A stretch of 64,000 nucleotides of DNA, taken from assembly GCA_965216605.1 (NCBI GenBank), contig CBDCGG010000002.1:519871-583870 (forward strand), in the 5' to 3' direction. Each line of letters starts with the position of its first letter. Position 1 is the stretch's first letter. The DNA comes from Alphaproteobacteria bacterium. GTDB lineage: Bacteria > Pseudomonadota > Alphaproteobacteria > JABAAW01. The position numbers were made by a program, and so were the translations under genes. This document shows, piece after piece, positions 11,835 through 50,775 of the stretch. Under the pieces are notes generated by a model, which saw only the letters and a program-made list of their open reading frames with translations, was not told the origin of the DNA and ran no database searches.

Positions 11835-11985
11835 ACGCGCACGTAGTGCGCGGGGGGGTGTGGGGGGATAAATTCCCCCCACGAAGACCCCGCGTCAGCG
11901 GAGCGCGCGTAAGCGCGCTTTAACTACGCGTGAGCGAAGCGAAACGCGCAGCCTCTTATTCAAAAGCGCACGACTTGTCGTCAAT
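11835..11985. repeat. Copy B of the ~140-bp dispersed intergenic repeat family
   Basis: It lies in the 700-bp divergent intergenic region upstream of nrdJ. It shares the core AAGACCCCGCGTCAGCG / GCGCGTAAGCGCGC / GCCTCTTATTCAAAAGCGCACGACTTGTCGTC with copies A and C, and contains the GGGGGGATAAATTCCCCCC hairpin. Confidence 0.8.
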
Positions 11986-12029
11986 ACGAAAAGCGCGTTA
12001 TTTTCCAAAAGCTCTGCTACACTCCCCCC

Positions 12030-12371: not shown

Positions 12372-12399
12372 TCCCCAATCCCCAATCTGAAGCTCCGCC

Positions 12400-23907: not shown

Positions 23908-25586
23908 TGAGGTTTGCACAATGTCAGTCCACTGTAGAGTTCGCGCTTCGGAGCATTGTACGGACATTGGGACATCGTAGGCAAGCGCACGCCGCTCAAA
24001 CCGCTATCGTAGTAATTGAAAAAGATCGGTATATGCCAATCTACCAGCATATTTGTGTCGGGAACGACAAACCACCCTCCCTCTTGTTCCGCTTGTTGCA
24101 CAACCTGTGCAAGCCATAGTGCCTCCCTGTGACGGAACCTCAGCCTTTGGACGGAGAGATAAAGCAGGCAGGCAACAACAACGAACACCACGATTCTTTG
24201 GGCTCTTTGTGCGCGCAAAAAAGAAGATTGCTTCTCGTCGGGCGCGAGCAGAAAGACAAGCAAGAGCACAGGCAACCACCAGTTCTGCGGCGTGAGGCGA
24301 AACGCGAAGCTCACACGCGTCGAGATAACGGATACCATAACCCCTGCCAAGACGAACCACGCTCCTCGGTGTCGCACAAAAAACACCAGCGTCAGACACA
24401 GAAGTAGCGAGCCGCTAAACAAAGTGCCGAAGCCGCCATAAAAAGCCTCGTATTGACGCAAAGAAAACGGCGGCAAAGGAGCAGGAGTCCAATAATCTTT
24501 CCCTCTTTCCGAGAACAGCGAAATCCACCATTTCTCGTACGAAGACTTGGCGTAGAATTCTTTGTCAAAAAGCCTGCCGACGATGTCCTTTGTTTTATCT
24601 TTCTCGGCAAAGGAGATCGCAGGGTAGAAGGGGTTTTTATGCAGCGCCATGTTCGTCGCGTAAGGGAAGAAGCCAAATAGGGCGACCCCCAAGATCGCCG
24701 CACCGCTGCCAAGCCCCGCAAGATGTACAAGCGTCTTTCTACTTGCTCCGCGTCGCGCGCCGTAAGCCAGTGCCGTCAGCCCCAGTATGCCGCCGTAGAC
24801 GAGCCCCGTGAACTTGATGTTGACGAGGAAGATTAATAAAGACGCAATACAAAAGGCGGCTCGAAAGCGTATCGTTCGACTTTGTGCTTTACCCTCAGAG
24901 ACAAAGCACAACATGAGCATGGATACACTCAATAACGTCGAGACAAGCAAGCCATCGTTATAGTGGACGAAGAAACACCATGTTGCGACGGGGTTGGCAG
25001 CGAGCAGGAATGCCAAAACATTGCGCCAAACACCAGACAAGTGCGATAGGGTTGGCGTTGCCAAAAAACGCCTTGCGCACAGAAACGCCGCCACGACAGC
25101 AACGCCTGTCAAGGCAAAGCTTGCCTCGAAACTTTGCGTCCATACAATCAGCGAGGCAGAAAGTAGCCAATGCGCTGTGGGATAAGTGTAGGTGATCCAG
25201 CTTCTAGGCTCCCAGTAGGGATTGACTCCCTCCAACAAGCCAAGAATTGCAAGAGCATGGTAGAAGCGTGAGTCTTGTCCCCTATCCAAATAAAGACTCG
25301 TCGCCCACGCCGTGAGCGCGAATACCGCCAAGAACAACAGCAGCGTTGCCACCAACTTCTGCCACTTTTCTTCTCGATGCAGTGCCACGATCGCTATGCC
25401 CCACAGCAACAGCCCTGTCGGAAAGACCCAACGACCCCTCTCCATATCGATGCCTATATCGGCAAGCAGAGCAAATGCCGCCGTCATGTACAAGATCGGC
25501 AGAAACAACACCGCTGCTGTCAGCAACAGCTCTTCCACGAAAAAACTCCGTATTCTTCTGACCTGCTCGACCTTCAGTTTTTTCAT
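23904..25586 (-). CDS. Paralog 2 of the tandem polytopic membrane-protein family
   Basis: It has the same architecture. Its N-terminal ~60 aa are nearly identical to paralog 1 ('MKKLK.EQVRRIRSFFVEELLLTAAVLFLP'). Its stop overlaps the paralog 1 start, and its start overlaps the paralog 3 stop. Confidence 0.75.
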   Translation of the reverse strand: MKKLKVEQVRRIRSFFVEELLLTAAVLFLPILYMTAAFALLADIGIDMERGRWVFPTGLLLWGIAIVALHREEKWQKLVATLLLFLAVFALTAWATSLYLDRGQDSRFYHALAILGLLEGVNPYWEPRSWITYTYPTAHWLLSASLIVWTQSFEASFALTGVAVVAAFLCARRFLATPTLSHLSGVWRNVLAFLLAANPVATWCFFVHYNDGLLVSTLLSVSMLMLCFVSEGKAQSRTIRFRAAFCIASLLIFLVNIKFTGLVYGGILGLTALAYGARRGASRKTLVHLAGLGSGAAILGVALFGFFPYATNMALHKNPFYPAISFAEKDKTKDIVGRLFDKEFYAKSSYEKWWISLFSERGKDYWTPAPLPPFSLRQYEAFYGGFGTLFSGSLLLCLTLVFFVRHRGAWFVLAGVMVSVISTRVSFAFRLTPQNWWLPVLLLVFLLAPDEKQSSFLRAQRAQRIVVFVVVACLLYLSVQRLRFRHREALWLAQVVQQAEQEGGWFVVPDTNMLVDWHIPIFFNYYDSGLSGVRLPTMSQCPYNAPKRELYSGLTLCKPQ

Positions 25587-27292
25587 TGAGGTTTGCACAA
25601 TGCCAGCCCATCGAGGGGTCTCATTTTCTCTGCTTTGTCTGGGCATTGAAGCATCGTGGGCAAGCGCACGCCGCTCAAACCGCTGTTGTAGTAACGGAAA
25701 AAGGCTTCTGTGTGGTGTTTCATCTGCAGATCGGGCACGACAAACCACCCTCCTTGCCGCTCCGCCTGTCGCACAACTTGCGACAAGGCGACTGCCAGAT
25801 TGCCATGATACATCAGCCTTGCGACGGAGATATAAAGCATGCAGGCAACAACGACAAACACGATAGCTCTTTGCGCACGCGACAAAGAGCGCGACAAAGG
25901 AGATGACTTCTCGTCAGGCGCGAGCAGAAAGACGAGAAAGAGCATCGGCAGCCACCAGTTCTGTGGCGCGTGGCGAGAAGAAAGACCCACCCCGAACGAA
26001 AGAATCGAGACGCCAACCCCTGCCAAAACAAGCAACCCTCCTCGATGACGCACAAAAAACACCAGCGTCAGACACAGAAGTAGCGAGCCGCTAAACAAAG
26101 AGCCGAACCCGTCCAAAAAAGATATAGGGCTCAGCGAAGAAAACGGCGGCAAAGGAGCAGGAACTCTCCAATCTCCTTGCGTTTGTGAAAACAGCCCAAT
26201 CCACCATTCCTCGTATTGCAACCTTTCTAAAAAAACGGGGTTTGCTTCCTCCAAAAAAGCTATCTCTTGTTTCCCTTCGCCGAACACGATAGCAGGATAA
26301 AAAGGATGGACAGGGTTTCCATGCAGGTAAGCGTTCGTCGAGTAAGGGAAGAAGCCGAACAGAGCGACCCCCAAGAGAGCCGCACCACTGCCCAGTCCTG
26401 CAAGGCGGACAAGCGTCTTTCGGCTTGCGCCGCGCCTGACCCCGTAAGCCAGCGCCGTCAGTCCCAAAGCACCCCCGAAGACGAGCCCCGTGAACTTGAT
26501 ATTGATGAGAAATACAAGAAGACACACGATACAAAAGGCTGTCCGTCGCAAGCGTCGTTTGTTTTCCCTTTGAGAGCCTTCTTCGCAGACAAAGCAGAGC
26601 ATCAGCATAAAAACGCTCAAAAGCACGGATACCAAAAAGCCGTCGTTGTAGTTCATAAAAAAACAAGAGAACGCGATGGGGTTGCCAGCAAGTAACGCGG
26701 CGAGAAGATTGCGCTTCGAACGAGATGAAGCACGAGACAAGTGTGGCAGCGTTGCCAAGAAACGCCTTGCGCACAGAAACGCCGCCACGACAGCAATGAC
26801 GGTGAAGACAACGCTAGTCGTAAGGAGTTGTGTCCACACAACAAGCGAGGCAGAAAGCAGCCAGTGCGCTGTGGGATAAGTGTAGGTGATCCAGCTTCTA
26901 GGCTCCCAGTAGGGATTTCTTCCCTCCAACAAGCCAAGGATTGCACGAGCATGGTAGTGGCGAGAATCCCATTCAATATCCGCGAGGAAACTCGCCGCCC
27001 ACACCGCGAGCGCGAATATTGCCAAAACCAGCAATAGGGTTGCGAGCCGTCTCTGCCATTTTTCCTCTCGATGCAGTGCCGCGACCGCTATACCCCACAG
27101 CAGTAGCCCTGTCGGAAAAACCCAACGACCCCTCTCCATATCGATGCCGATGTCCGCAAGCAGAGCAAACGCCGCCGTCATGTACACAATGGGCAGAAAC
27201 AACACCGCCGCTGTCAGCAACAGCTCTTCCACGAAAAAACTCCGTATTCTTCTGACCTGCTCGGCTTTCAGTTTTTTTACTAGGGTTTGCAC
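25583..27292 (-). CDS. Paralog 3 of the tandem polytopic membrane-protein family
   Basis: It has the same architecture. The canonical ATG of paralogs 1 and 2 is replaced by GTA (Val), so a GTG 4 codons upstream is used as the start. Confidence 0.7.
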   Translation of the reverse strand: MQTLVKKLKAEQVRRIRSFFVEELLLTAAVLFLPIVYMTAAFALLADIGIDMERGRWVFPTGLLLWGIAVAALHREEKWQRRLATLLLVLAIFALAVWAASFLADIEWDSRHYHARAILGLLEGRNPYWEPRSWITYTYPTAHWLLSASLVVWTQLLTTSVVFTVIAVVAAFLCARRFLATLPHLSRASSRSKRNLLAALLAGNPIAFSCFFMNYNDGFLVSVLLSVFMLMLCFVCEEGSQRENKRRLRRTAFCIVCLLVFLINIKFTGLVFGGALGLTALAYGVRRGASRKTLVRLAGLGSGAALLGVALFGFFPYSTNAYLHGNPVHPFYPAIVFGEGKQEIAFLEEANPVFLERLQYEEWWIGLFSQTQGDWRVPAPLPPFSSLSPISFLDGFGSLFSGSLLLCLTLVFFVRHRGGLLVLAGVGVSILSFGVGLSSRHAPQNWWLPMLFLVFLLAPDEKSSPLSRSLSRAQRAIVFVVVACMLYISVARLMYHGNLAVALSQVVRQAERQGGWFVVPDLQMKHHTEAFFRYYNSGLSGVRLPTMLQCPDKAEKMRPLDGLALCKPQ

Positions 27293-28956
27293 AATGCCAG
27301 CCCATGGATGGGTATCATTTTCTCTGCCTTTTCAGGGCATTGGGAGAGGGTAGGCAAGCGCACGCCACTAAAGCCGCTGTCGTAGTAACGGAAAAAGGCT
27401 AAAGCCTTCCGTTTCATCAGCAGATCGGGGACAAGGAACCATCCTCCCTGCTGTTCCGCTTGTTTCACAACCCGCATTGTCTTGATTGCTGCCACGCCAT
27501 AAAAATTTGCGCTTTGGAAAGAGTCGTAGCACAAGCAAGCGACAACAGCGAACACCGCGATTCTTTGGGCTCTTTGCGCGCGCGACAAAAGATTTTTCTT
27601 CTCGTCGGGCGCGAGCAAGAAAACAAGAAAAAGTATAGGCATCCACCAGTTTTGCGGCGTGAGGCGGAAATGGAAACTGGCAGATGTCGAGAGAATGGAT
27701 ACCATGATACCTGCCAAAACGAACCACGCTCCTCTGTGTCGCACAAAAAACACCAAGCTCATACACAGAAGCCACGAGCCACCAAAAAGAGGTCCTAGGC
27801 TTGAGATGAAGGATGTGGGACGCAAAGAAGAAAAAGGCGGTAGAGGAGCGAGACGCCACTCGCCGTTCACCGGTTTGGAGAACAGCGAAAGCCACCATTT
27901 CTCGTAATGCGACCTTTTATAAAATTCTGGGGACACAAGGGGACGGGTTATGTCGCTTGTTTTCTTTCCCTTGTCAAAGAAGATTGCGGGGTAGAAGGGA
28001 TTTTTATGTAGCGCAGTGTTCGTCGCGTAAGGGTAGAAGCCGAATAGGGCGACCCCCAAAATAGCAGCCGCACTCCCCAACCCCGCCAGTCGCAAGAGCG
28101 TTGCGCGGCTTGCGCCACGCCGTGCGCCGTAAGCCAGCGCTGTCAGCCCTAAGATGCCGCCGAAGACGAGCCCCGTGAACTTGATATTGACGAGCAACAC
28201 GAGAAGACACACGATATAAACGGCGGCTCGAAGCTGTGTCGTTCGACTTTGCCTCTTGCCTTCCGAGACAAAGCAAAGCATGAGCAAGAAAACACTCAAC
28301 AGCGTCGAGACAAAAAAGCCATCGACACTGTGGACGAAGTAGCACCATATTGCGATGGGGTTGGCAGCGAGCAGGAACGCCAAAACATGACGCCAGAAAC
28401 GGGACAAGTGCTGTAGCGTTGCCAAATAACGCCTTGCGCACAGGAAGGCTGTCAGAACGGACAGAGCCGTGAAAGCAAAGCTCGCGGTGAAAAGTTTTGT
28501 CCATACAATCAGCGAGGAAGAAAGCAGCCAGTGAGCAGCGGGGTAGGTGTAGTAGACATAACGCGTGCCCCAAGTGTTGGGATGACGATAGGGATTTCCT
28601 CCATCCAACAACGCCAAAATAGATTGTGCATGGTAGGTGCGACCATCCCACCCTCTGTCCAAAAAGAAACTCGTAGCCCACGCCGCGAGCGCAAAGCCTG
28701 CCAATAACAGCAACAGCGTTGCCGCTTGTTTGTGCCACCTTTCCTCTCGATGCAGTGCCGCGACCGCAACTCCCCACAGCAGCAACCCCGTAGGAAAAAC
28801 CCAACGACCCCTCTCCATATCGATGCCTATGTCGGAAAGCAGAGCAAATGCCGCCGTCATGTACAAGACAGGCAGAAACAACACCGATGCCGAAAGCAAC
28901 AGCTCTTCCGAGAAAAAACGCCTTGCTCTTCCGATGGAAGCACCTATGGCTTGCAT
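27280..28956 (-). CDS. Paralog 4 of the tandem polytopic membrane-protein family
   Basis: It has the same architecture. A ~230-nt stretch of its 5' end (about 28680-28915) is near-identical to paralog 5 (about 30355-30595). It overlaps both neighbours by 13 nt. Confidence 0.75.
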   Translation of the reverse strand: MQAIGASIGRARRFFSEELLLSASVLFLPVLYMTAAFALLSDIGIDMERGRWVFPTGLLLWGVAVAALHREERWHKQAATLLLLLAGFALAAWATSFFLDRGWDGRTYHAQSILALLDGGNPYRHPNTWGTRYVYYTYPAAHWLLSSSLIVWTKLFTASFAFTALSVLTAFLCARRYLATLQHLSRFWRHVLAFLLAANPIAIWCYFVHSVDGFFVSTLLSVFLLMLCFVSEGKRQSRTTQLRAAVYIVCLLVLLVNIKFTGLVFGGILGLTALAYGARRGASRATLLRLAGLGSAAAILGVALFGFYPYATNTALHKNPFYPAIFFDKGKKTSDITRPLVSPEFYKRSHYEKWWLSLFSKPVNGEWRLAPLPPFSSLRPTSFISSLGPLFGGSWLLCMSLVFFVRHRGAWFVLAGIMVSILSTSASFHFRLTPQNWWMPILFLVFLLAPDEKKNLLSRAQRAQRIAVFAVVACLCYDSFQSANFYGVAAIKTMRVVKQAEQQGGWFLVPDLLMKRKALAFFRYYDSGFSGVRLPTLSQCPEKAEKMIPIHGLALCKP

Positions 28957-30701
28957 AGCACCAACCCATAGACGAGTCTGCGTGTCTCTGCTTTTTCAGG
29001 ACATTGGGGCATAGTAGGCAAGCGCACGCCACTCAAGCCGCTGTCGTAGTAATCGAAAAAGATTTGACTTTCGCTATTTTTAATCTGCGGATCAGGAACA
29101 ATGAACCACCCTCCCTGCCGCTCCACCTTTCGCACAACCCGCGCCGTCTCGATCGATGCCCCACCATAAAATTTGACGCTTTGGATTGAGGCATATAACA
29201 AGCAGGCGACAACGACTAAGATCACGATTCTTTGGGCTCTTTGCGCGCGCGACAAAAGGTTTTTCTTCTCGTCGGGCGCGAGCAGAAAGACGAGAAATAG
29301 CACAGGCAACCACCAGTTCTGCGGCGCGTGGCGAAAAGAAAAACCCACCTCGAACAAAAATATTGAGGCGGCAACCCCTGCCAAAACGAGCCAAGCTCCT
29401 CGGTGTCGCACAAAAAACACCAAGGTCAGACATAAAAGCAAGGCGCCGCTAAACAAAGAGCCGAACCCATAAAGAAAATCTCCGGGTCTAAGTGAAGAAA
29501 AAGGCGGCAAAGGAACGGGATCCCAACCACTTGCTGACCCACTTTTGGAAAACAATGAAATCCACCATTTTTCGTACTGCGATCTTCCTGAAAAGACAGG
29601 GCTTGAATCCTCCCAAAAAACTATCTCTTGTTTCTCTTCGCCGTACACGATAGCAGGATAGAAAGGATGGACAGGGTTGCCATGCAGGTAGGCGTTCGTC
29701 GCGTACGGGTAGAAGCCAAACAGCGCGACCCCCAAGATCGTAGCCGCACTGCCCAGCCCTGCAAGTTGTACAAGCGTCTTTCGACTTGCGCCGCGTCGTG
29801 CGCCGTAAGCAAGCGCTGTCAGCCCTAAGATGCCGCCGAAGACGAGCCCCGTGAACTTGATATTGATGAGAAACACGAGAAGACACGCGATACAAAAGGC
29901 GGCTCTAAGCCGTGTTGTTCGACTTTGCCTCTTGCCTTCCGAGACAAAGCACAACATGAGCAAGAAGACACTCAGTAGCGTGGATACAAGCAAACCATCG
30001 GTATGGTTGGTAAAGAAGCACCATGTTGCGATGGGGTTGGCAGCGAGCAGGAACGCCAAAACATTACGCCAGAAACGAGACAAGTGCTGTAGCGTTGCCA
30101 AATAACGCCTTGCGCAGAAAAACGCCGACAGAGTGGCTACGACCGTAAAGACAAAGCTTACCTCAAACATGTGCGTCCATACGATCAACGAGGCAGAAAG
30201 CAACCAGTGAGCCACAGGGTAGGTCAAAATGACCCACAACTTGAGCCAACTGTTAGGGTGCCGGTAGGGATTGACTCCCTCCAACAAGTCAAGGATTGCC
30301 TGAGAATGGTAGTCGCGAGAATCGTAGTTGTTGTCCAAAAGGAAACTCGTAGCCCACGCCGCGAGCGCAAAGCCTGCCAATAACAGCAACAGCGTTGCCG
30401 CTTGTTTGTGCCACCTTTCCTCTCGATGCAGTGCCACGACCGCAACTCCCCACAGCAGCAACCCCGTAGGAAAAACCCAACGACCCCTCTCCATATCGAT
30501 GCCTATGTCGGAAAGCAGAGCAAATGCCGCCGTCATGTACAAGACAGGCAGAAACAACACCGATGCCGAAAGCAACAGCTCTTCCGAGAAAAATCGCTCG
30601 CCACAAGACGACACGCTCCCTTCCCACGCCTTGACACGGCGTTGTAAAGACGACGAAAGGCGACAGCACGCATCGGCGATTGTTGGCAAAAGATGTTTCA
30701 T
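28944..30701 (-). CDS. Paralog 5 (first in transcription order) of the tandem polytopic membrane-protein family
   Basis: It has the same architecture and a longer N-terminal extension. It starts 48 nt from tRNA-Ser on the opposite strand. Confidence 0.75.
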   Translation of the reverse strand: MKHLLPTIADACCRLSSSLQRRVKAWEGSVSSCGERFFSEELLLSASVLFLPVLYMTAAFALLSDIGIDMERGRWVFPTGLLLWGVAVVALHREERWHKQAATLLLLLAGFALAAWATSFLLDNNYDSRDYHSQAILDLLEGVNPYRHPNSWLKLWVILTYPVAHWLLSASLIVWTHMFEVSFVFTVVATLSAFFCARRYLATLQHLSRFWRNVLAFLLAANPIATWCFFTNHTDGLLVSTLLSVFLLMLCFVSEGKRQSRTTRLRAAFCIACLLVFLINIKFTGLVFGGILGLTALAYGARRGASRKTLVQLAGLGSAATILGVALFGFYPYATNAYLHGNPVHPFYPAIVYGEEKQEIVFWEDSSPVFSGRSQYEKWWISLFSKSGSASGWDPVPLPPFSSLRPGDFLYGFGSLFSGALLLCLTLVFFVRHRGAWLVLAGVAASIFLFEVGFSFRHAPQNWWLPVLFLVFLLAPDEKKNLLSRAQRAQRIVILVVVACLLYASIQSVKFYGGASIETARVVRKVERQGGWFIVPDPQIKNSESQIFFDYYDSGLSGVRLPTMPQCPEKAETRRLVYGLVLCKP

Positions 30702-30749
30702 CGCTCGTCTATGCTAGGGTGGCGTGTGGCTGAAAGGCGAGGGGCTTGC

Positions 30750-30836
30750 GGAGAGGTGCCGGAGCGGTCGAACGGGACGGTCTCGAAAACCGTTGTGCGC
30801 GCAAGCGCACCGAGGGTTCGAATCCCTCCCTCTCCG
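30750..30836 (+). tRNA. tRNA-Ser (CGA anticodon), class II with long variable arm
   Basis: The fold fits manually: acceptor GGAGAGG/CCTCTCC, anticodon stem ACGGT/ACCGT with loop CTCGAAA (CGA anticodon), a variable-arm hairpin GTGCGCGCAAGCGCAC, and T-arm GAGGG-TTCGAAT-CCCTC. Confidence 0.8.
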
Positions 30837-30898
30837 TATCAACTCTCGCCTCAACCCTAGCACAAGAACCAGAGAAGCAAGAATCAGAGAGATAAGCG

Positions 30899-31684
30899 TC
30901 AAAGAGGCAAACGTTTGAAAATTTTCTCTGGAATATTGCGGATGATCGCCATGATCCCGACCCACAGCCACGGCACATAGAGCTGCTCGCGCTTTCGCTC
31001 GATGGCGCGCAAGATAACACGAGCGACATGCTCAGGACTGCTCCACAAAGCACCCTTGCGGAACGAGGCGGTCATCTTCGTAGCCACGAATCCTGGCTTG
31101 ATCGTCTGAATACACAAAGGCGAGCCTGCGCGCGCCAAACGATGACGCAACCCCTGCAAAAAGAGCGCGACCGCACCCTTGCCCGATCCATAGATATAGT
31201 TTGACGCGCGACCGCGATCGCCCGCGACCGAACCAAAAACAGAGATCACACCCCCCCTCTTCTCCATGCGTGCGCTCGCAGCATGAGCCAGCGAGGCAAC
31301 GCTGAGAAAGTTCGTCTCCCAGGCGATGCGCGCCTGTTCAAAGTTTTTCTCGGCGATTTTTTGGTTCGGCAAAACTCCTTGCGCAAGCACAACAACCCCC
31401 AATCCTCCCAAGGCTTTGTGCGCGTGAGCGAGCAAACCGTCGTGCGAGGCGAAGTTGCGCGCCTCGAAACCTTCGATCGCTACAAAACTAGCACCGCGCA
31501 GCGTCAAGTCCTTGGCAAGCCTTGCTAGTCCCTTCTTGTCGCGCGAAAAAAGGCAGAGGCGCGCGCCGCGCACAGCCCACAGGCGCGCCATCGCGCGTGC
31601 TATGTCGGCGTTCGCCCCGAAGATCGCTATATGTTCAGGGCTTTGGTGGTCGGATTTATGGCGCTTAAGATTCTTCGTTGTCAT
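30899..31684 (-). CDS. dprE2: Decaprenylphospho-2'-keto-ribose reductase DprE2-like short-chain dehydrogenase
   Basis: The 261-aa SDR has a Rossmann 'IAIFGANADIARAMA', the catalytic 'YGSGKGAV', and a C-terminus 'IMAIIRNIPEKIFKRLPL' that closely matches Mtb Rv3791 'VMMVLRHIPRSIFRKLPI'. An AAGGAG RBS is present. The track ORF (668 aa) is Arg-rich read-through of another frame; the true start is the internal Met at 31684. Confidence 0.85.
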   Translation of the reverse strand: MTTKNLKRHKSDHQSPEHIAIFGANADIARAMARLWAVRGARLCLFSRDKKGLARLAKDLTLRGASFVAIEGFEARNFASHDGLLAHAHKALGGLGVVVLAQGVLPNQKIAEKNFEQARIAWETNFLSVASLAHAASARMEKRGGVISVFGSVAGDRGRASNYIYGSGKGAVALFLQGLRHRLARAGSPLCIQTIKPGFVATKMTASFRKGALWSSPEHVARVILRAIERKREQLYVPWLWVGIMAIIRNIPEKIFKRLPL

Positions 31685-31719: not shown

Positions 31720-33036
31720 TTAAAGCCCGAGTCGCTGCGATTGCCGCGAGGCAAAAAGGGTGTCCGCTTCGACCTTGCGCCGTACGGCACAAAACTCTTT
31801 CCAGCGAGGATAGCCTTTGCGAAAGTTCTTTTTCGAGAGGCGTGCGTCTTTCGTCAGATAGACGCGCCCTCCGACAGCATGCACGAGCGCGTCCAAATTT
31901 TCCAGCAGCTCGAAGACGCGCGCGTTGTTTTGAAAGTCGAGCGCGAGCGTATATCCCTCCTGAGGAAAGGACAGAGGCGACAGCGCGATACCGCGCCCCA
32001 TCGTCTTCAACACGGCGAGAAAAGACCCTTGTCGAGACGCGACGACACGTTGCAAAATCTCTTCGAGCACATAGCACCCGTCTTTTTTTGGCACGACGCA
32101 CTGGTATTGCAAAAACCCGCGCTTGCCGTAAAGACGGTTCCAGTGTCGAATGCCGTCGAGCGGATAGAAGAACTTGTCGTATGCAACGATTCGCTCGATG
32201 GGCTTTGGGGCGCGACACCCGTAGTATAAGGCGTTGAAGGCGCGCACGGAGAGGGGGTTGAGCAGGAAGGAGGGAGCGTTGCAGGGAACAGAGACCAGTC
32301 CTTTTTCTTCGATGCGCCATCCCGCGCGCTCGGCGTGTTCGGCGAGGAAGAGAACACCGCGTCCCATATTTTTGCCTCGTGCGAGACAATCGAGCCACGC
32401 AACCGAGTAGGTTGTCTCGGCATGGTGTTCCAACAACTCGACGAGTTCCTGAAGGTTGCGCGCGCGTTGGCTTGTCTCCAGCATGTATGCGCTCGGCACG
32501 CGCTTCATGCGTAAGGTGAGGTCGATAACAACCCCGACAAGTCCCATCCCGCCGCAGACGGCGTGAAACAGCTCGGCATTCTTGCGCCGCGAGCAGGATA
32601 CGATCGTACCATCCGCGATCATCACGCGCATGTCTTGTATGTGATGAGCAAAGCTTCCTTCTTTGTGATGGTTTTTGCCGTGCACATCGCTGGCGACAGC
32701 TCCTCCCAGCGTCACATGCCTTGTGCCGGGCGAGACGGGCACCGCCCACCCTACAGGCAGGAAGACGCGCAACAGATCGTCGAGCGCAACGCCCGCCAGA
32801 CATCGAAGGTATCCTGTGCGCTCGTCGAAGGCGCTGAGCGTGTCGAAGGCGCGCATGTCGAGGCTGACGGGCGCGAGCGCACAATCGCCGTAGCCGCGTC
32901 CGCAACCCCGTGCGATCAAACGCTCACCGCGTGCACGCGCAGAGCGCAAAACCTCTCGCAAACCTTCCTCCGATGCGGGCGAGACAACCCGTGCCTCCAT
33001 CGAGGGATATCGCCCCCAACCTGCTATGCTCGTCAT
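31720..33036 (-). CDS. dprE1: Decaprenylphosphoryl-ribose 2'-oxidase DprE1-like FAD-dependent oxidoreductase
   Basis: Motifs 'GWGRYP', 'RGCGRGYGD' and 'SPGTRHVTLGGAVASDVHGKNHH' match the DprE1 signatures ('GWGR', 'RGLGRSYGD', '[23 protein letters not shown]'). It is 438 aa. An AAGGAG RBS precedes downstream dprE2 and the two are co-oriented. Confidence 0.9.
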   Translation of the reverse strand: MTSIAGWGRYPSMEARVVSPASEEGLREVLRSARARGERLIARGCGRGYGDCALAPVSLDMRAFDTLSAFDERTGYLRCLAGVALDDLLRVFLPVGWAVPVSPGTRHVTLGGAVASDVHGKNHHKEGSFAHHIQDMRVMIADGTIVSCSRRKNAELFHAVCGGMGLVGVVIDLTLRMKRVPSAYMLETSQRARNLQELVELLEHHAETTYSVAWLDCLARGKNMGRGVLFLAEHAERAGWRIEEKGLVSVPCNAPSFLLNPLSVRAFNALYYGCRAPKPIERIVAYDKFFYPLDGIRHWNRLYGKRGFLQYQCVVPKKDGCYVLEEILQRVVASRQGSFLAVLKTMGRGIALSPLSFPQEGYTLALDFQNNARVFELLENLDALVHAVGGRVYLTKDARLSKKNFRKGYPRWKEFCAVRRKVEADTLFASRQSQRLGL

Positions 33037-33053
33037 AACTTCCTCGCCATCTT

Positions 33054-33155
33054 GGGGATAAATTCCCCTTGGGGATAGATTCCCCTTGGGGATAAATTCC
33101 CCTTGGGGATAAATTCCCCTTGGGGATAGATTCCCCTTGGGGATAAGTTCTCTTT
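33054..33155. repeat. Six tandem copies of a 17-bp unit TTGGGGATA(A/G)ATTCCCC in the dprE1 / UbiA-like divergent intergenic region
   Basis: GGGGATA recurs at 33054, 33071, 33088, 33105, 33122 and 33139 with an exact 17-bp period. Each unit contains the palindrome CCCCTTGGGG and the hairpin GGGGATAAATTCCCC. Confidence 0.85.
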
Positions 33156-33226
33156 ACGCTCGTGCGTTGTCGCGCAACGCTTTTGCGCTTACTATAGGCA
33201 AAAGATAGAGGCAGGGTAGCCTGTTC

Positions 33227-34144
33227 GTGGAGGATGGAGAAAACGCGATGCCAACAACTTTAAAACCGCTGCAAGACAAAAAGACGCGATCCTTATCGCT
33301 CTCTGTGCTTGCGCTGTTGCGCCCTTTGGAATGGAGCAAAGGCGTTTTTGTACTTTTTCCTGCCTTGTTTTATGATATCTCGCTCGTTGTGTGGAAGCCT
33401 GCCTTGTGGGGAGCGGTGCTTGCAAGCTTTGTGCTGTTTTGCCTTGCTGCCTCCGGCGTCTATGTCTTCAACGATCTGTTGGATATTGAACAAGATCGCA
33501 AGCATCCGATCAAGAAACATACGCGACCTCTCGCTTCAGGAGAGATCTCGAAGTCTTGGGCGTGGGGCATTTTTGTTGCGCTGTCGTCTGCCTGCTTTCT
33601 GTTGTCGGCAGCATTTGTGCCTGCGGTGTTTCCCTTTCTTCTCATCTATTGGCTTTTGATGCTTGCGTACAGCGCGAAGTTGAAGCATTGGGCGATCATC
33701 GATCTTTTTGTAATCGCGTTCGGCTTCTGCCTTCGCGTCGAGGCGGGTGCGGCGGCACTCGACGCTCCTGTTTCGCTGTGGATGCTGGCGACGACCTTGT
33801 GTCTTGCGTTGTTCCTTGCTGCCTCCAAGCGAAGGCAAGAGACACTTGCCAACAAGGCGCGCGCGCGGCGGGTGTTGAGCGTCTATTCCGTTCCTTTGAT
33901 CGAACGTTATATGATGATCGCGGCGGTTTGCACGCTGATGTTTTACAGCTTTTTTGCAACCGACATTCGTCCGAAGCTGGGTTATACGATTCCCTTCGTG
34001 CTGTTCGGCTTCTTCCGCTACTTGCTGCTGATCGAGCGTAGCTCTGACAAGGATTCTCCTACTGATCTGTTGTTTTCGGACAAATCTCTTTTGGCGTGCG
34101 TCGTCGTATGGGCGATGTTGTCGATGGTGTTGTTGTGGCACTAG
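33227..34144 (+). CDS. UbiA-family decaprenyl-phosphate 5-phosphoribosyltransferase (Rv3806c/DPPR synthase-like)
   Basis: The 305-aa protein has 'FCLAASGVYVFNDLLDIEQDRKHPIKKHTRPLASG', paralleling Rv3806c 'FSLAASAVYLVNDVRDVEADREHPTKRFRPIAAG'. Further similarity occurs at 'LKHWAIIDLFVI' and 'SKRRQETL'. It is divergent from dprE1-dprE2. Confidence 0.85.
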   Translation: MEDGENAMPTTLKPLQDKKTRSLSLSVLALLRPLEWSKGVFVLFPALFYDISLVVWKPALWGAVLASFVLFCLAASGVYVFNDLLDIEQDRKHPIKKHTRPLASGEISKSWAWGIFVALSSACFLLSAAFVPAVFPFLLIYWLLMLAYSAKLKHWAIIDLFVIAFGFCLRVEAGAAALDAPVSLWMLATTLCLALFLAASKRRQETLANKARARRVLSVYSVPLIERYMMIAAVCTLMFYSFFATDIRPKLGYTIPFVLFGFFRYLLLIERSSDKDSPTDLLFSDKSLLACVVVWAMLSMVLLWH

Positions 34145-34785: not shown

Positions 34786-35849
34786 CGCACCCCTTAAAAT
34801 TTCTCATCCTCGCTACAACCCTTCTGTTCCTCTCATCGCCATTTCTAAACGCTAAAGCCAAATCCAAATCCGCACCCCTCAAAATCGTCTCAACCGCAGC
34901 CCCTATACACGCGCTGCTCGTACATCTGACGCACGGCGCACAAAAGCCGCATCTGCTCCTGCCGCCAACCATCATGCCGCACGGCGCAAGACTCACGCCG
35001 TCGCAAGCACGCATTCTGCACAACGCCAACCTGCTCGTGCTTATCGGAGAATCCTTCGCCGCGCTCGAAAGCAACATCAAGCCAAGCGCAACCCGCCACA
35101 TCGTCCGCCTCACAAAGCTGAAAGGAATCACAATCCTGCCCATCGTACCAAAACATGACGAAGAAGAGCATGGTGAAGAGGAGCACGAAGCAGAGGAGCA
35201 TGGAGAAGAGGAGCATGGAGAAGAGGAGCACGGAGCAGAGGAGCACGGAGCAGAGGAGCACGGAGCAGAGGAGCACGAGGCAGAAGAACATGAAGCAGGA
35301 GAGCATCTTCATGAGGGCAGCGTCGATCCGCATGTGTGGCTCGATGTGGAGAACGCTCGTGTGATCGTCAAGCGTCTTGCCGAGATTTTGGCAAAACGCG
35401 ACCCCTCCAACGCCGCGCTGTATCGCAAGAACGCACGCTTGCAAGAGCTCTCTCTGCGTGCGCTCGATCAAGAGGTGCGCGCGCTCGTGCGCGGGATTTC
35501 GACAAGTTCTGTTGCGGCAAAATTTCTCGTGCTTCACGATTCCACCGCCTACTTTACAGCGCGCTATGGCATTCGCGGCAAAGAGCGTCTCTACGCTGCG
35601 CGTCACAACGCCACGCGCGATGGTCTGCGACATACTTTGAATGTGCGCAAAAAGCTGCGTAGCGGAGACTATCGTTGTGTCATCGTGCAACCACAACTGC
35701 CGCGCGAGGTGCGTACACGGCTTTTAGGCTCTGATACGCGGGTTGTTGTCATCGATCCCTTGGGGGCAAAGTTGCCGCAGGACAAGAATTTTTACGCTAG
35801 CTTGTTGATGTCTGTTGCCGAGGGCTTCCGGGAATGCCTTGCTGGCTAG
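34782..35849 (+). CDS. znuA: Zinc ABC transporter substrate-binding protein ZnuA with an unusually long acidic/His-rich loop
   Basis: It has a signal peptide and the cluster A-I SBP fold. The loop 'HDEEEHGEEEHEAEEHGEEEHGEEEHGAEEHGAEEHGAEEHEAEEHEAGEH' is encoded by tandem 18-nt repeats. znuC and znuB follow. Confidence 0.8.
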   Translation: MTHPLKFLILATTLLFLSSPFLNAKAKSKSAPLKIVSTAAPIHALLVHLTHGAQKPHLLLPPTIMPHGARLTPSQARILHNANLLVLIGESFAALESNIKPSATRHIVRLTKLKGITILPIVPKHDEEEHGEEEHEAEEHGEEEHGEEEHGAEEHGAEEHGAEEHEAEEHEAGEHLHEGSVDPHVWLDVENARVIVKRLAEILAKRDPSNAALYRKNARLQELSLRALDQEVRALVRGISTSSVAAKFLVLHDSTAYFTARYGIRGKERLYAARHNATRDGLRHTLNVRKKLRSGDYRCVIVQPQLPREVRTRLLGSDTRVVVIDPLGAKLPQDKNFYASLLMSVAEGFRECLAG

Positions 35850-38460: not shown

Positions 38461-39357
38461 GTGTTCTGCGAAGCCGATCAGCGAACTCTGTCCTCTCTGT
38501 ACAGCAACGCGCGTTTTCGTGTCTCTTGGGGGAGAATCGTCGTCAAATTGACCTGCATCCTGCTGTTGCTTGTCGCGAACACGATCGTTTTTCTGCCCTT
38601 TGCTTTGTTACGCCGTCTGCCACCTATCGGCTTGCGATCGCTCTTTTATAAAATGTATACGCACATTTTAGGCATCTCGTTGCGCACGCACGGCGCGGTG
38701 GCGGATACATCGCATGTGCTTTATGTTTCGAATCACATTTCTTACATCGACATCGCGGCTCTGATGTCCTTGACGGGCGCACGATTCGTCTCGCGCGGCG
38801 ACATAGCGAGGCTTCCCTTCTTCGGCTGGCTGATGAAACATTACGGCACCGTATTCATCCATCGCACCCGCGTCGATGTTCGAGGACAAATCACCCTGCT
38901 GCATCGTCTTTTGGGCGAGGGCAGCCCTCTGTTGTTGTTCGGAGAAGGCACGACTAGCGACGGCAGAAGTGTCCTGCCCGTCAAGTCCAGCCTTTTTGCC
39001 GCCTTCGAATCGCTCCCCGCGAACAACCTCGCCCTACAGCCCATCAGCCTGCGCTACAGCCTGCTCGACGGAGTGCCGATGAGCACACACTGGGAACCCT
39101 TGTGCGCATGGCACGGCGAAATGTCCTTCTTGCCGCATCTCCGAGAGGTCTTGAGCCTGCATCGCATCACGATCGATGTCTATGTACATCCGTCCACGCC
39201 CATAGCGACAATCCCGACCACACAAAAAAACTTCAAACGAAAAAAAATGGGAAGAAAGGATATGGCACATTTCTGCCAAGAGGAAATTCAAAAGGGATGC
39301 GCGCTGTTGCGCTACTTTGGGCAGGAAGACGCGTCCCCCTTGCTGCCCAAGAAATAG
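38461..39357 (+). CDS. olsA: Lyso-ornithine lipid O-acyltransferase OlsA-like (PlsC/LPLAT family)
   Basis: It has an HX4D motif 'NHISYID' and 'FGEGTTSDG'. It starts at GTG 38461 with an AGGAG RBS 7 nt upstream, in frame with the track ORF 38263. Confidence 0.6.
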   Translation: MFCEADQRTLSSLYSNARFRVSWGRIVVKLTCILLLLVANTIVFLPFALLRRLPPIGLRSLFYKMYTHILGISLRTHGAVADTSHVLYVSNHISYIDIAALMSLTGARFVSRGDIARLPFFGWLMKHYGTVFIHRTRVDVRGQITLLHRLLGEGSPLLLFGEGTTSDGRSVLPVKSSLFAAFESLPANNLALQPISLRYSLLDGVPMSTHWEPLCAWHGEMSFLPHLREVLSLHRITIDVYVHPSTPIATIPTTQKNFKRKKMGRKDMAHFCQEEIQKGCALLRYFGQEDASPLLPKK

Positions 39358-40934
39358 CGCGCGTCGTAGAGTTTGAACCTCTCCCTTACTTTGCCCGCCG
39401 CCCGTCGCTGAATTTTATCCAACAAAACGACGCTGCAAAAGAGATTTTTCACATTTTTTTTGCGCACATAGGCGTGCATCAGCAGCAGGAAATTTTTTCC
39501 TTCCCACTTCTCCAACGAGGGGTAGGCGTAGTGGAACTGGTTAGGCTTGTCGTGCGTGATTTCAGGTGTCGGGTTGCAATCTCCTTGGACGCACGCGCTG
39601 TGCGCCAGCTTCGATACAAGCTGGTATGAGCGACCTGCGATCTCGTGTTGCGGAAAGGAAGCGCGTTGGATATCTACAACTTTTTGATAGACCTCGTCCC
39701 ACCCGTAGACTTGATCGAAGCTGCCCTTCGGCATCCACTTAGCCGATAGCAGCGAGGCTACGAACAGCACGACCAAAAGGCTGCTCGGCAACAAGGCGAG
39801 AAGAACGAGGGGCTTGCGAAAGGTTTTTCTCCATCCCGCGCTGCCCAAAGCGACACACCCCACAGCGAACAGCATGATCGGAAAGATGGCCCAATTGACA
39901 TAGACTCCTTTTTTCCACGCGGTGACCGAGAAGAAAGCCAACACGCACGCGCTGACGAAAAAAACATAGCGTTGTTGGATGGGCAAGCTGCTCCACCCCC
40001 GCTTGCCGCCCCAAACGGAGCGAACAAAGACGAAGCAGAGGGGAATACTCACTGCTATCACGATGGACGCGGCGTATTCCAGCAGGTGTAGCATCCTCTC
40101 TAGAATCGACAGGTTGGAGGTGTTGAGGTGTCGATAGGAAACAAATTGGAAGCTTACCCAGTCGTTGAGGAAGTTCCACGCCACGATGGGTAACAGAGCC
40201 GTGCAAGCGATGAGCAAAGCTCCCCAAGGTGCGAAGTGTCGCAGGCTTCTCCGCGCCTCTGCGTCGAAGAGAACGAAGAGGGCGGAGGCGGCGATCCACA
40301 GCCCTGCCGTGTATTTTCCCAGCAACGAGAGCGCCAAGCCCACTCCTGCGAGTAGCCACCAGCGTGTCTGTTCGTCTTTTTTGCCGTCTTTTTTGTTTGA
40401 AGCTTTTTCGTTTGAATCTTTCAGTGCTCTGACCGCCATCCAAACGGCGAAGAAGGCAAAGGCGGTGCAGCCAACATCGTGCGTCCAAAACGCGAACAAG
40501 GCCCAAAAAGGGAGCGTGCCAAGCAGAAAGACGCTGAAGAGTCCCAGCACTTCGTTCTCGGCTTCGTTTCCCGCCTGTTGAGAAAAAGGCTTGCCGCGTT
40601 CGGAGTGGAGGTCGCAGACGAGGCGCGCTGCGCAATAGGTTGCAAAGAGCCCGAACAATCCGGCTGCCAGTCGCATAACCCACGCCTCGTCGCCGAGCAG
40701 CCACAGAAAAGGAGCCAGAAACCATCCTGTGCCAGGCGCGTTCTCGTAGTAGGAGAGCCGCAACTCCCGTCCCCAAAACCAGTAGTAGGTTTCGTCGTGC
40801 AACAAGCCGCGCGGTAGCAGCAGCGCAAAACGAGCCATCGCCTGCGAAAGCATCACGCTCCAAAACCACAAGGGCAACGAGAGCCAACGTCGCTGTAGAA
40901 CGCTTGAAAAACTCCGCCGTGCAAAAATCGTCAT
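39312..40934 (-). CDS. ArnT/PMT-family (GT39/GT83-like) polyprenyl-phosphate-sugar glycosyltransferase
   Basis: It is a polytopic membrane protein with the first-loop motif 'DETYYWFWG...SYYENAPG' characteristic of ArnT/PMT_2. The start is set at the internal Met (MTIFARR) at 40934. Confidence 0.7.
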   Translation of the reverse strand: MTIFARRSFSSVLQRRWLSLPLWFWSVMLSQAMARFALLLPRGLLHDETYYWFWGRELRLSYYENAPGTGWFLAPFLWLLGDEAWVMRLAAGLFGLFATYCAARLVCDLHSERGKPFSQQAGNEAENEVLGLFSVFLLGTLPFWALFAFWTHDVGCTAFAFFAVWMAVRALKDSNEKASNKKDGKKDEQTRWWLLAGVGLALSLLGKYTAGLWIAASALFVLFDAEARRSLRHFAPWGALLIACTALLPIVAWNFLNDWVSFQFVSYRHLNTSNLSILERMLHLLEYAASIVIAVSIPLCFVFVRSVWGGKRGWSSLPIQQRYVFFVSACVLAFFSVTAWKKGVYVNWAIFPIMLFAVGCVALGSAGWRKTFRKPLVLLALLPSSLLVVLFVASLLSAKWMPKGSFDQVYGWDEVYQKVVDIQRASFPQHEIAGRSYQLVSKLAHSACVQGDCNPTPEITHDKPNQFHYAYPSLEKWEGKNFLLLMHAYVRKKNVKNLFCSVVLLDKIQRRAAGKVRERFKLYDARYFLGSKGDASSCPK

Positions 40935-40959
40935 GCTTGTCCTATGCAAGAGATAGTCT

Positions 40960-41610
40960 TTACCTCCCCTTTGCCTCCCCTTGCGTCCAAGGGGGGGTTG
41001 CCGCCAAAACACGCGCATAGACAGGGCAGGCGCGCGCGTGCGCGTCGGGAAGGTAGCCTGTGCCTGTAAGAAACTCGCCTACGATCTCAACGCCGACAAA
41101 GCGGAAGGTTTGACGAAAAAGCTTGACCCACGCCTCGCGTTCTAAGGGATGATGCTCGTCGAGCCACGCCTTGAACGAGCCGTGTGTCGAGGCAAGCTCG
41201 CTTATTCGCTGGGCGTTGAAAATGGCAGCCTCGATCTTGAGGCGATGGCGAATAATGCTCGCATCCTGCAGAAGACGAGCGATGTCTTGAGCGGCAAACC
41301 GCGCTACGCGCGCGACAGAAAAGTCGGCGTAGGCTTTTTTCAACGCCGCGCGTTTCTTCATAACCGTCAGCCACGAAAGCCCCGCTTGGTTGATTTCCAA
41401 AAGAAGATATTCGAACAGGCGATCGTCGCTCACCACAGGAAAGCCGTGTTCAAAGTCGTGGTGCTGCTGCAACAAAGGATGCGCACGCGCGGCAAGGCAG
41501 TAAGCAGACACAAGAGAAAATAGCCTTGTTAAATCAAGCGCGCGAGCGCAACCCACAACAAAGTCGTCAGCAGGATTGCCAACAACGAGACAACAAGTGC
41601 CTTGCGCCAC
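40960..41610 (-). CDS. tag: DNA-3-methyladenine glycosylase I (Tag)
   Basis: The motif 'DDRLFEYLLLEINQAGLSWLTVMKKR' matches the Tag core (DxxLFExLxLEGFQAGLSW). The N-terminus is atypical and the start is uncertain. Confidence 0.65.
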   Translation of the reverse strand: MAQGTCCLVVGNPADDFVVGCARALDLTRLFSLVSAYCLAARAHPLLQQHHDFEHGFPVVSDDRLFEYLLLEINQAGLSWLTVMKKRAALKKAYADFSVARVARFAAQDIARLLQDASIIRHRLKIEAAIFNAQRISELASTHGSFKAWLDEHHPLEREAWVKLFRQTFRFVGVEIVGEFLTGTGYLPDAHARACPVYARVLAATPPWTQGEAKGR

Positions 41611-42315: not shown

Positions 42316-42385
42316 TGCTATATTAGATTCTTGACTTGGATTCTTGGCTTGGATTCTTGGCTTGAATTTCTTGGCTTGAATTTTT
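42316..42385. repeat. Five tandem copies of a 13-14-bp unit (GATTCTTGGCTTG) upstream of a small ORF
   Basis: The directly readable sequence is gattcttgacttg gattcttggcttg gattcttggcttg aatttcttggcttg aatttttggcatc. Confidence 0.7.
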
Positions 42386-42458
42386 GGCATCATCCGTGTT
42401 ATACACGCGCGAGCGGCAAACGGGGATGCCTTTTATGCTTTTTTGGGAGAGTTCGTTC

Positions 42459-42842
42459 ATGACAAAAATTTTGTTTTCTTTTCTGCTTTGTTTTTTTAGC
42501 CTTGTGCTGCTGTCGACGGATGCCTCTGCGCATCATGTCTATGGCATCGAGGTCTCGCCTACCTTAGAGCTTGTTCATGGCTTGGCAGAACCTTTCCTCT
42601 TCGCCTTGAGCGGAGCATGCCTTGCCGCTTTCCTATCGCGGCGCGCACCCCTCAAACTGCTTCTCGCGTTGCTCGTCTTCAGCTTTGTCTTCGGCTTTGT
42701 TGGACTCGCCTTGGCGATCGCCTCTGTGATCGAGGAAGGGGTAGGCTTGTTCCTGCTGTGGGACGCGCTGGCAGGCGCGGGGTTTTTCGCGCTCGTGGGA
42801 CGCAGACGAGTGGGCGTGAAGCGTAACGCCAAGATTTTTTAA
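42459..42842 (+). CDS. Hypothetical small membrane protein with signal peptide
   Basis: 'MTKILFSFLLCFFSLVLLSTDASAHH' is followed by 2-3 TM helices. A GGGAGA RBS is present. It is flanked on both sides by tandem repeat arrays. Confidence 0.4.
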   Translation: MTKILFSFLLCFFSLVLLSTDASAHHVYGIEVSPTLELVHGLAEPFLFALSGACLAAFLSRRAPLKLLLALLVFSFVFGFVGLALAIASVIEEGVGLFLLWDALAGAGFFALVGRRRVGVKRNAKIF

Positions 42843-42905: not shown

Positions 42906-42915
42906 TTTCTGACGC

Positions 42916-50639: not shown

Positions 50640-50775
50640 TGCGCACAGGGGGCGTGGGGAGTTTCCAACCCCCCGCAAAAGACCCCGCGTCAGCGGGGCG
50701 CGTAAGCGCGCTTTTCTAGCGCGTAGCCTCTTATTCAAAAGCGCGAGGGGGGATAAATTCCCCTCGCAGAAACGC
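50640..50775. repeat. Copy C of the ~140-bp dispersed intergenic repeat family
   Basis: It lies between tolB and a convergent downstream gene, where pal would be expected. It shares AAAGACCCCGCGTCAGCG / GCGCGTAAGCGCGC / TAGCCTCTTATTCAAAAGCGC and a GAGGGGGGATAAATTCCCCTCGC hairpin. Confidence 0.8.

Follow-up and report, generated by a model that had tools for sequence, protein, structure and literature searches.

The stretch of DNA considered here (hereafter "the window") comprises 64,000 nucleotides of contig CBDCGG010000002.1 of an uncultured alphaproteobacterium, and the element under study is an array of 17-bp tandem units at positions 33052–33153, within the spacer that separates the dprE1-dprE2 genes, encoded on the minus strand, from a UbiA-family gene read divergently on the plus strand. 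We favor, with moderate confidence, the view that this array is a recent local expansion of a lineage-specific dispersed palindromic repeat whose behavior is similar to that of the repetitive extragenic palindromes (REPs) or of the STRR elements; it is not a dedicated switch of the arabinose-donor genes that flank it, because the unit is dispersed in intergenic DNA and is absent from the same spot in close relatives. The locus is organized as follows.

30899..31684, minus strand: DprE2-like short-chain dehydrogenase/reductase (SDR) (NF053786 DprE2 model, 152 bits, cut-off 250)
31720..33036, minus strand: DprE1-like FAD oxidase of 438 aa with FAD_binding_4 and ALO domains (best NCBIfam model DprE1, NF053785, 410 bits, cut-off 500)
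33029..33051, minus strand: ATG of the DprE1-like gene (33036–33034) and leader GATGGCGAGGAAGTT, with a Shine-Dalgarno-like GAGGAAG and a CATAAC.. flank conserved in relatives
33052..33153, no strand assigned: tandem array of six head-to-tail 17-bp units, five intact and the last degenerate
33158..33206, no strand assigned: conserved spacer block containing the inverted repeat CTTTTGC-N11-GCAAAAG (33180–33204) around TACTATAG, with a GCGTTG..CAACGC palindrome upstream
33248..34144, plus strand: UbiA-family, decaprenyl-phosphate phosphoribosyltransferase-like gene (best NCBIfam model NF008977, 185 bits, cut-off 234)

The three protein-coding genes are those that an earlier, sequence-only reading of this DNA had named, and their assignment to the arabinose-donor pathway is plausible, all three scoring below the respective NCBIfam equivalog cut-offs; the product of 30899–31684 finds its best NCBIfam match in the generic SDR model PRK07102 (261 bits), and the UbiA-family gene has an alternative GTG start at 33227. 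The distance between the array and the dprE1 ATG is 15 nt, the array ending 5 nt before the Shine-Dalgarno sequence, and no regulator gene is present close to the array among the open reading frames (ORFs) of the window and their Pfam matches.

The existence of the six-copy 17-bp array is confirmed and statistically secure. Tandem Repeats Finder reports it at 33051–33150 with a period of 17, 5.9 copies, 93% matches and a score of 179, and the 15-mer GGGGATARATTCCCC, with up to two mismatches allowed, occurs 7 times in the window against an expectation of 0.10, a count reached by none of 100 shuffled sequences. On the plus strand the unit reads TTGGGGATA(A/G)ATTCCCC, which in the sense of dprE1 corresponds to GGGGAAT(T/C)TATCCCCAA; each unit consists of an inverted repeat with 5-bp arms, GGGGA-N5-TCCCC, plus a TT linker, and all occurrences of GGGGA-N5-TCCCC in the window are members of this family of 17-bp units. 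The sequence-only reading had placed six repeats of perfect period at 33054–33155; the array and its period stand, whereas the sixth unit is degenerate and the coordinates were 2 nt out of register. That reading rightly denied that this is a CRISPR array, the units being contiguous and without spacers, but erred in calling CCCCTTGGGG a perfect palindrome, since this sequence reads CCCCAAGGGG as its reverse complement and pairs only through its C4/G4 arms; the true symmetry is that of GGGGA-N5-TCCCC. The units and the blocks into which they are grouped are listed below.

33052–33068, unit 1: TTGGGGATAAATTCCCC (A type)
33069–33085, unit 2: TTGGGGATAGATTCCCC (G type, ...ATAGATT...)
33086–33102, unit 3: TTGGGGATAAATTCCCC (A type)
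33103–33119, unit 4: TTGGGGATAAATTCCCC (A type)
33120–33136, unit 5: TTGGGGATAGATTCCCC (G type)
33137–33153, unit 6: TTGGGGATAAGTTCTCT (degenerate A type, A', with 3 mismatches)
33052..33102, no strand assigned: first 51-bp higher-order block, unit types A, G, A
33103..33153, no strand assigned: second 51-bp higher-order block, unit types A, G and degenerate A'

The two blocks (A, G, A vs A, G, A') constitute a higher-order 51-bp repeat, 33051–33101 and 33102–33152 being 96% identical. Degenerate edge units and uniform interior units characterize both this array and those of the sister genome, a metagenome-assembled genome (MAG) of 1.9 Mb (OZ244186.1, "MAG: Alphaproteobacteria bacterium") whose DprE1 is 94% identical; indeed, the edge unit of the window array, AGAGAACTTATCCCC as reverse complement, resembles the edge unit of the array located near ndk in that genome. 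The 51-bp structure, the degenerate edges and the uniform interior are the expected product of replication slippage or unequal exchange.

A series of DprE1 homologues (94, 89, 88, 85, 85 and 80% identity) was available for comparison, and the contigs of five of them, together with the window, yielded an alignment of six orthologous spacers: the window, L005 (94%), L006 (88%), L007 (85%), L008 (85%) and L010 (80%). The divergent order of ubiA and dprE1-dprE2 is kept in all five relatives' contigs. The 17-bp array, on the other hand, is absent from the orthologous spacers of L005, L006, L007 and L008, and the six-spacer alignment displays no remnants of the unit in the array-free spacers. The stretch occupied by the array is hypervariable and is flanked by the side of the dprE1 ribosome-binding site and by the conserved block; the sister genome (94%) has 48 nt there, with AACAATCTTGCTCG present twice, and in the 88% and 85% relatives the stretch is short and of unrelated sequence. 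Colinearity of the window with the sister genome extends over 21 kb at 88–92% identity, the array being among a handful of breaks, and window positions 33048–33153 correspond to 42 nt in the sister-genome locus L021. The 80% relative, L010, carries 2.8 + 1 copies of a variant unit, GGGGAATTTGTCCCCAA, which lie across the conserved block, beside the ubiA start and in the opposite orientation, and which represent an independent acquisition.

The behavior of the conserved block is the reverse of that of the array. Its core, TTTGCGCTTACTATAGG.AAAA, is invariant in the six genomes and its CTTTTGC-N11-GCAAAAG element is unique within the window; the inverted repeat at 33180–33204 is a better candidate than the array for a promoter or operator shared by the divergent operons. 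Read by eye, the block holds TTGTCG-N17-TACTAT on the plus strand and TATAGT on the minus strand, both weak matches, and no sigma-70-like promoter was returned for 32800–33500 at the threshold of the tool.

An exact scan for GGGGATARATTCCCCTTGGGGATA (1.4 units) through one genome for each of 185,579 species matched a single genome, namely OZ244186.1, at four sites, where arrays of 3.2, at least 2.9 (this array runs off the end of its locus), 4.1 and 3.1 copies are found, none of them at the dprE1 locus. Their positions in that genome are the following.

L001: array 4 nt past a stop codon, between co-directional genes
L002: array 37 nt upstream of an ndk-like gene
L003: array 14 nt past the stop codon of a 1503-aa RTX-like ORF, in a convergent spacer
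L004: array in a divergent spacer, 37 and 38 nt from the two start codons

Single units also occur in the sister genome (L002:7212, L003:1824/7191, L004:697/1021 and L021:18597/18873), and the further copies that the sequence-only reading had noticed inside dispersed repeats of the window are indeed single units.

11860..11882, plus strand: single unit (11864–11878) capping a hairpin with a 9–10-bp stem, GTGG-GGGGATAAATTCCCC-CCAC, in a composite GC-rich dispersed repeat upstream of nrdJ
50743..50767, plus strand: single unit (50749–50763) capping the hairpin GCGA-GG-GGGGATAAATTCCCC-TCGC, in a dispersed repeat downstream of tolB

The unit thus has three loci in the 64-kb window and at least 13 in ~60 kb of sister-genome sequence. 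At the site orthologous to the single unit at 50749, the sister genome has GCGAGG-CTTTG-CCTCGC and no copy of the unit. Altogether, six arrays of 2.8–6 copies are known from three genomes; all are intergenic, 4–38 nt from an ORF boundary, and divergent, co-directional and convergent spacers are all represented, as is expected of an element that is tolerated wherever it is harmless. Three of the six lie in divergent promoter regions, near start codons, and two of the six adjoin a start codon, each in sense orientation, GGGGAAUUU(A/G)UCCCCAAG, a pattern that with n = 2 is not significant.

Outside these genomes the array pattern gave no match in the JGI metagenomes and none in viral contigs; the 19-mer single-unit pattern gave 10 matches in the JGI metagenomes, all single copies in low-GC contigs dissimilar to the window, which corresponds to chance level. 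Array and conserved block together had no plasmid or phage match by BLAST. With Rfam, the whole window yielded only two tRNAs at gathering thresholds, and with permissive settings the array and both dispersed-repeat regions gave only sub-threshold chance matches. The composite GC-rich repeats, built of hairpin modules such as gcgcgcGTAAgcgcgc and ccccGCGTCagcgg, are located at 11830–11990, 50640–50800, 7850–7980, 2440–2560 and 51460–51575 of the window and at 18550–19290 of L021; they are common to the window and the sister genome with 84–94% identity (85–90% for those in which the single units sit), differ between the two in the size of their clusters and may be related to the CGTC-type REPs of Alphaproteobacteria.

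The way in which a unit may be gained is illustrated by a paralogous repeat family, GTCAGCT|TGCGCGAGG.. (also written GTCAGCT|TGCGCGAGGCAAGCC..), of which five copies are empty and two adjacent copies are filled, the latter having exactly 17 extra nt, (T/C)GGGGAT(A/G)AA(T/C)TCCCCT, at CTTG. This gain amounts to one unit-sized event, for which insertion by an enzyme, gene conversion and template switching are candidates. As to a target-site duplication at the ends of the arrays, the flanks are ambiguous and CAAG is present on both sides in L001 only.

Other short arrays of the window differ in copy number from the sister genome. A 14-bp array, CCAAGATTTTTTGA, extends with 5–6 copies over 42829–42913 as far as the ribosome-binding site and ATG of ppa; its 14-mer is present in ~6 copies in the window vs a single copy in the sister genome and in an 87% relative, where the intergenic gap is only ~18 nt. 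A 13-bp array, GATTCTTGGCTTG, occupies 42326–42388, where a glyoxalase-family gene and an unknown ORF diverge; the window has 4.8 copies of its unit, the 94% sister genome 2.8, and 87% relatives lack it. Further 13-bp arrays are found upstream of gcrA (~3 copies, 63690–63729) and purM (~2.6 copies, 4375–4408), and CTTG/CAAG is present in many short arrays of the clade. These cases suggest that the genome tends to carry tandem duplications of 13–17 bp in gene leaders, and the 14- and 13-mer copy numbers mark the lineage as prone to slippage or unequal exchange. Unlike the 14- and 13-mer arrays, the 17-bp unit did not grow from local sequence, since nothing of it is found at the empty orthologous sites, and a seeding step is therefore needed. 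Exact-protein look-ups for strain variants returned no proteins identical to the DprE1, DprE2, P0001 and P0003 of the window.

The units have preserved their capacity to form a hairpin. The arms GGGGA and TCCCC are invariant in all non-edge copies while the centers vary (TAAAT, TAGAT, TGAAC, the last seen twice, and CAAAT), and two genomes with ~10% DNA divergence share an identical consensus, a single spacer position differing in the 80% relative. In the single units the extra stem pairs differ and yet stay complementary (GTGG/CCAC, GCGG/CCGC and GCGA/TCGC). The predicted stability ranges from −8.4 to −9.0 kcal/mol for the unit and from −18 to −22 kcal/mol for the extended singles, and the predicted fold of the whole array reaches −54.7 kcal/mol (z = −3.3), both strands being stable (z −3.3 and −4.2). 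Neutral decay would not yield invariant arms together with a shared consensus; a constraint on the hairpin, a dimeric binding protein, or ongoing propagation accompanied by homogenization would fit this pattern about equally well, so that rival explanations have to be kept. By analogy with REP-type elements, a trans-acting factor or a process homogenizing the copies may recognize the hairpin or its half-sites, since the consensus is unchanged at non-orthologous loci of different genomes.

Other identities of the motif were considered and discarded. The "terminator-like" match within the array is a unit junction with no real T-tract, the units being without U-runs, and is not an intrinsic terminator; a G-quadruplex was rejected because 13 nt separate the G4 tracts, each of which pairs with a C4 tract; GANTC (CcrM) sites occur only in the two G-type units, are not found in the sister-genome units and look coincidental. 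The Fis-like, IHF, CtrA, alphaproteobacterial LexA and sigma-54 consensus sequences have no convincing match to the array motif.

The following pathway can be envisaged. The basic module is a 15-nt hairpin-forming inverted repeat, GGGGA-TAAAT-TCCCC, that is spread through the intergenic DNA of an uncultured alphaproteobacterial clade and that exists either singly, capping longer GC-rich hairpins within composite repeats, or in head-to-tail arrays of ~3–6 units joined by TT, with CTTG/CAAG junctions. A single seeding event would have brought this module into the hypervariable stretch that the conserved promoter/operator-like block bounds on one side and the dprE1 ribosome-binding site on the other, and replication slippage or unequal exchange would then have amplified it, the final step being the duplication of a three-unit (51-bp) block. 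The array makes the leader or promoter spacer of dprE1 ~60 bp longer than in the sister genome. Were dprE1 transcribed from the conserved block, the array would belong to its 5′ leader, where it probably lies, and would form a ladder of 5-bp helices just upstream of the Shine-Dalgarno sequence. Any local effect on expression is most likely incidental, and the absence of the array from close relatives having the same genes suggests that such an effect is dispensable. The array, its dispersal, its presence or absence at orthologous sites, its higher-order structure and its folding potential are shown by the data; the history of seeding and slippage, the trans-acting factor, the transcription of the array and its effect on expression are what we infer.

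If the array is not a dedicated switch of its neighbors, what could account for the constancy of its unit? The units could be bound by a clade-specific global DNA-binding protein, either nucleoid-associated or a global regulator, sitting as a dimer on GGGGA-N5-TCCCC; the arrays would recruit several dimers and modulate the flanking promoters (here those of dprE1 and ubiA), and would thus be functional genome-wide and not in one pathway. Such a protein would agree with the half-site-like architecture, in which 5-bp arms are invariant and the 5-bp spacer variable across at least 26 copies, with the sameness of the consensus in diverged genomes and with the location of half of the arrays in divergent promoter regions close to start codons, but not with the arrays lying 4 and 14 nt past stop codons, in co-directional and convergent spacers that contain no promoter to regulate. 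Furthermore, presence or absence at the same promoter among close relatives opposes an important regulatory role, the 17-bp period sets successive sites on different faces of the helix and no candidate protein was found; we consider this explanation unlikely, although worth bearing in mind. A somewhat smaller chance is granted to an action at the RNA level, whereby, on the model put forward for REP sequences, transcribed hairpin arrays in 5′ leaders and 3′ trailers would protect mRNAs against exonucleases or RNase E, or tune translation; here the dprE1-dprE2 mRNA would be stabilized or attenuated by the array. The stable predicted folds of both strands, the closeness of the arrays to ORF ends, the termination of the present array just ahead of the dprE1 Shine-Dalgarno sequence and the compensatory stems of the extended singles are all consistent with this possibility. 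On the other hand, no promoter could be placed in 32800–33500 and no Rfam family matched, and further arguments against an RNA-level role are the mixed orientation of the arrays relative to neighboring genes, the absence of the array at the same gene in close relatives and the weakness of individual 5-bp stems.

Two further proposals have very little probability. The sequence-only reading had suggested that the units are iterated operators through which a dedicated dimeric regulator co-controls the divergent dprE1-dprE2 and ubiA promoters, and palindromic units between divergent genes of one pathway are indeed what such a regulator would call for. The comparative data have largely refuted this model: the array is missing in the loci of four relatives that keep the gene arrangement, arrays of the same unit are found at unrelated genes, no regulator gene is adjacent and the element conserved in the spacer is another one, at 33180–33204. 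The other suggestion of that reading, a slippage-prone spacer, fits better than operators, and the 51-bp duplication, the hypervariable stretch and the copy-number differences of the other arrays uphold it as a mode of origin only. Hardly any credit can be given, likewise, to the possibility that the arrays are clusters of weak DnaA boxes titrating or recruiting DnaA in the manner of datA/DARS loci or DnaA-regulated promoters. The minus strand of the unit contains TTATCCCCA, which matches 8 of the 9 positions of TTATCCACA, the consensus of the DnaA box, and four of the six units have this one mismatch. Weak DnaA boxes do serve in alphaproteobacterial origins (PMC4468827). Nevertheless, the G-type units and those of the 80% relative have two mismatches (7/9), a post hoc 8/9 match to one among many transcription-factor consensus sequences is weak, the 17-bp spacing and the palindromic arms are foreign to DnaA-box arrays, and neither a rep gene nor origin features are present in the neighborhood.

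Several considerations weigh against the local expansion of a dispersed repeat, which nonetheless remains our preferred account. The unit counts cover only ~64 kb of the source genome and ~60 kb of the sister genome, and copy numbers may be slightly off in long-read MAG assemblies. All six arrays are 4–38 nt from an ORF boundary, and the sense orientation of the two next to a start codon could hint at a function in leaders; functional sites bound by a global DNA-binding protein would lead one just as much to expect a unit consensus conserved across genomes. Among the ~55 ORFs of the window a Pfam scan revealed no transposase or REP-associated tyrosine transposase (RAYT), and the 17-nt gain described above was a single event. 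The head-to-tail architecture, the kept consensus and this one unit-sized insertion leave room for a propagating or binding protein as a possibility. Pushed further, the 15-nt hairpin with its CAAG/TT junction might be a minimal self-targeting unit, mobile or propagated by an enzyme, or, in a variant of this idea, the target of a new global protein of this lineage that binds hairpins or DNA, a proposal that we regard as improbable. A clade-specific enzyme (HUH/Y1-type or some other hairpin-recognizing nuclease or recombinase) would then insert copies beside CAAG; each unit has a CAAG of its own at the end, so that successive insertions would line up head to tail with a period of exactly 17 bp. 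An enzyme-propagated unit would be the smallest known propagating DNA element, and the finding would gain weight if a dedicated protein were to propagate or bind it.

Should the array instead be the local expansion of a dispersed repeat, as we prefer to think, it would tell little about the regulation of arabinose-donor synthesis, and attention shifts to the conserved CTTTTGC-N11-GCAAAAG element as regards shared control of both operons. The value of the array would lie in showing how small hairpin repeats and 13–17-bp expansions remodel leaders in a streamlined (1.6–1.9 Mb) uncultured alphaproteobacterial lineage, and the array is a possible strain-typing marker as a variable-number tandem repeat (VNTR).

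The remainder of the window consists of housekeeping genes (pur, hda, nrdJ, the cox operon, ribB, znuACB, ppa, ruvCAB, tolQRAB, mnmE, lgt and gcrA). Downstream of dprE1-dprE2, the minus strand carries at 22237–30701 five tandem paralogues of ~1.68 kb with 63–85% DNA identity, whose products of 558–614 aa match DUF2142 weakly and are possibly GT-C-type glycosyltransferases; relatives seem to have fewer genes of this kind, L005 at least two and L006 a single one that is immediately followed by a COX2 gene. A tRNA-Ser(CGA) at 30749–30837 lies on the opposite (plus) strand between dprE2 and the first of these membrane-protein genes. A PMT_2-family (GT-C type) glycosyltransferase gene at 39312–41018 is missing at the syntenic position of the 94% sister genome and is present in the 87% relative L022, a 10.8-kb contig whose gene order is mirrored about its center (acyltransferase, PMT_2, tag, glyoxalase, ppa, yebC, then reversed), an arrangement suggestive of an artefact of fold-back assembly and not of a genuine gene order. 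Repeats are also found within coding sequences: the ZnuA gene contains at 35160–35306 a 15/45-bp repeat encoding a His/Glu-rich stretch whose length differs from that of the sister genome, with a break of colinearity at 35201–35257, and a 12/24/36-bp repeat lies at 5401–5523 within a 437-aa ORF without Pfam match. A run of 2.6 copies of the heptamer AATCCCC is located at 12370–12387, near an NDUFA12-like gene.

To which of the known systems does the unit family come closest? It is no CRISPR array, and it does not look like an iteron set or like a recognizable miniature inverted-repeat transposable element (MITE). With phase-variable spacers, operators and iterons it shares identical tandem units in a promoter-proximal spacer, and palindromic units are operator-like; however, the array does not appear to be placed between recognizable −35 and −10 elements, is neither locus-specific nor conserved in orthologous spacers and, unlike iterons or operators, has no adjacent rep or regulator gene. 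As regards MITEs, which are ~50–500 bp long and have terminal inverted repeats and a target-site duplication, the unit has 5-bp inverted arms and there is one 17-nt filled/empty pair at CTTG, compatible with a TT or CTTG duplication; to our knowledge, however, 15 nt is far below the size of any MITE, and slippage accounts for the arrays. The MIRU/VNTR minisatellites of Mycobacterium have units of 40–100 bp, which are non-palindromic and often contain a small ORF or translation signals. Dispersed intergenic arrays in the spacers of housekeeping operons and lineage differences in copy number arising by slippage are common to both, the difference being that the present unit is only 17 bp long and palindromic.

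The likeness is greater with the REP/BIME/REPIN elements, i.e., repetitive extragenic palindromes of GTAG- and CGTC-tagged families (PMC3733652, PMC3116915). Shared traits are short GC-rich hairpin palindromes that are exclusively intergenic, numerous and of lineage-specific sequence, a consensus kept across non-orthologous copies, presence or absence between relatives, and mosaic clusters with other hairpin modules, CGTC-containing modules standing beside some of the single units. In size, imperfect palindromes of ~20–40 nt are to be compared with a unit of 15–17 nt and with extended singles of 23–27 nt having 9–10-bp stems. REP hairpins carry an unpaired GTAG or CGTC tag at one end (PMC3733652), whereas the array units are flanked by TT/CTTG only and the CGTC found ~14 nt from some singles belongs to a neighboring module and not to the foot of the hairpin. 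Moreover, REPs form head-to-head or tail-to-tail dimers, the head-to-tail arrangement being "negligible", whereas all six arrays described here are strictly head-to-tail, with a period of 17 and 2-nt linkers; and REPs lie mostly downstream of genes, whereas half of these arrays are in divergent promoter regions.

The organization in arrays is, on the other hand, that of the dispersed short tandem repeats, such as the cyanobacterial STRR heptamers and the GGGNATC arrays of Xanthomonas and Nostoc (PMC4692102). Their units are 6–9 bp long and form G-quadruplexes, whereas the present one is 17 bp long, forms hairpins and also occurs singly inside other repeats; as in those families, one unit is found in tandem at many intergenic loci in variable copy number (2.8–6 here), with arrays less than ~50 bp from the starts or stops of ORFs and without any link to contingency genes or insertion sequence elements.

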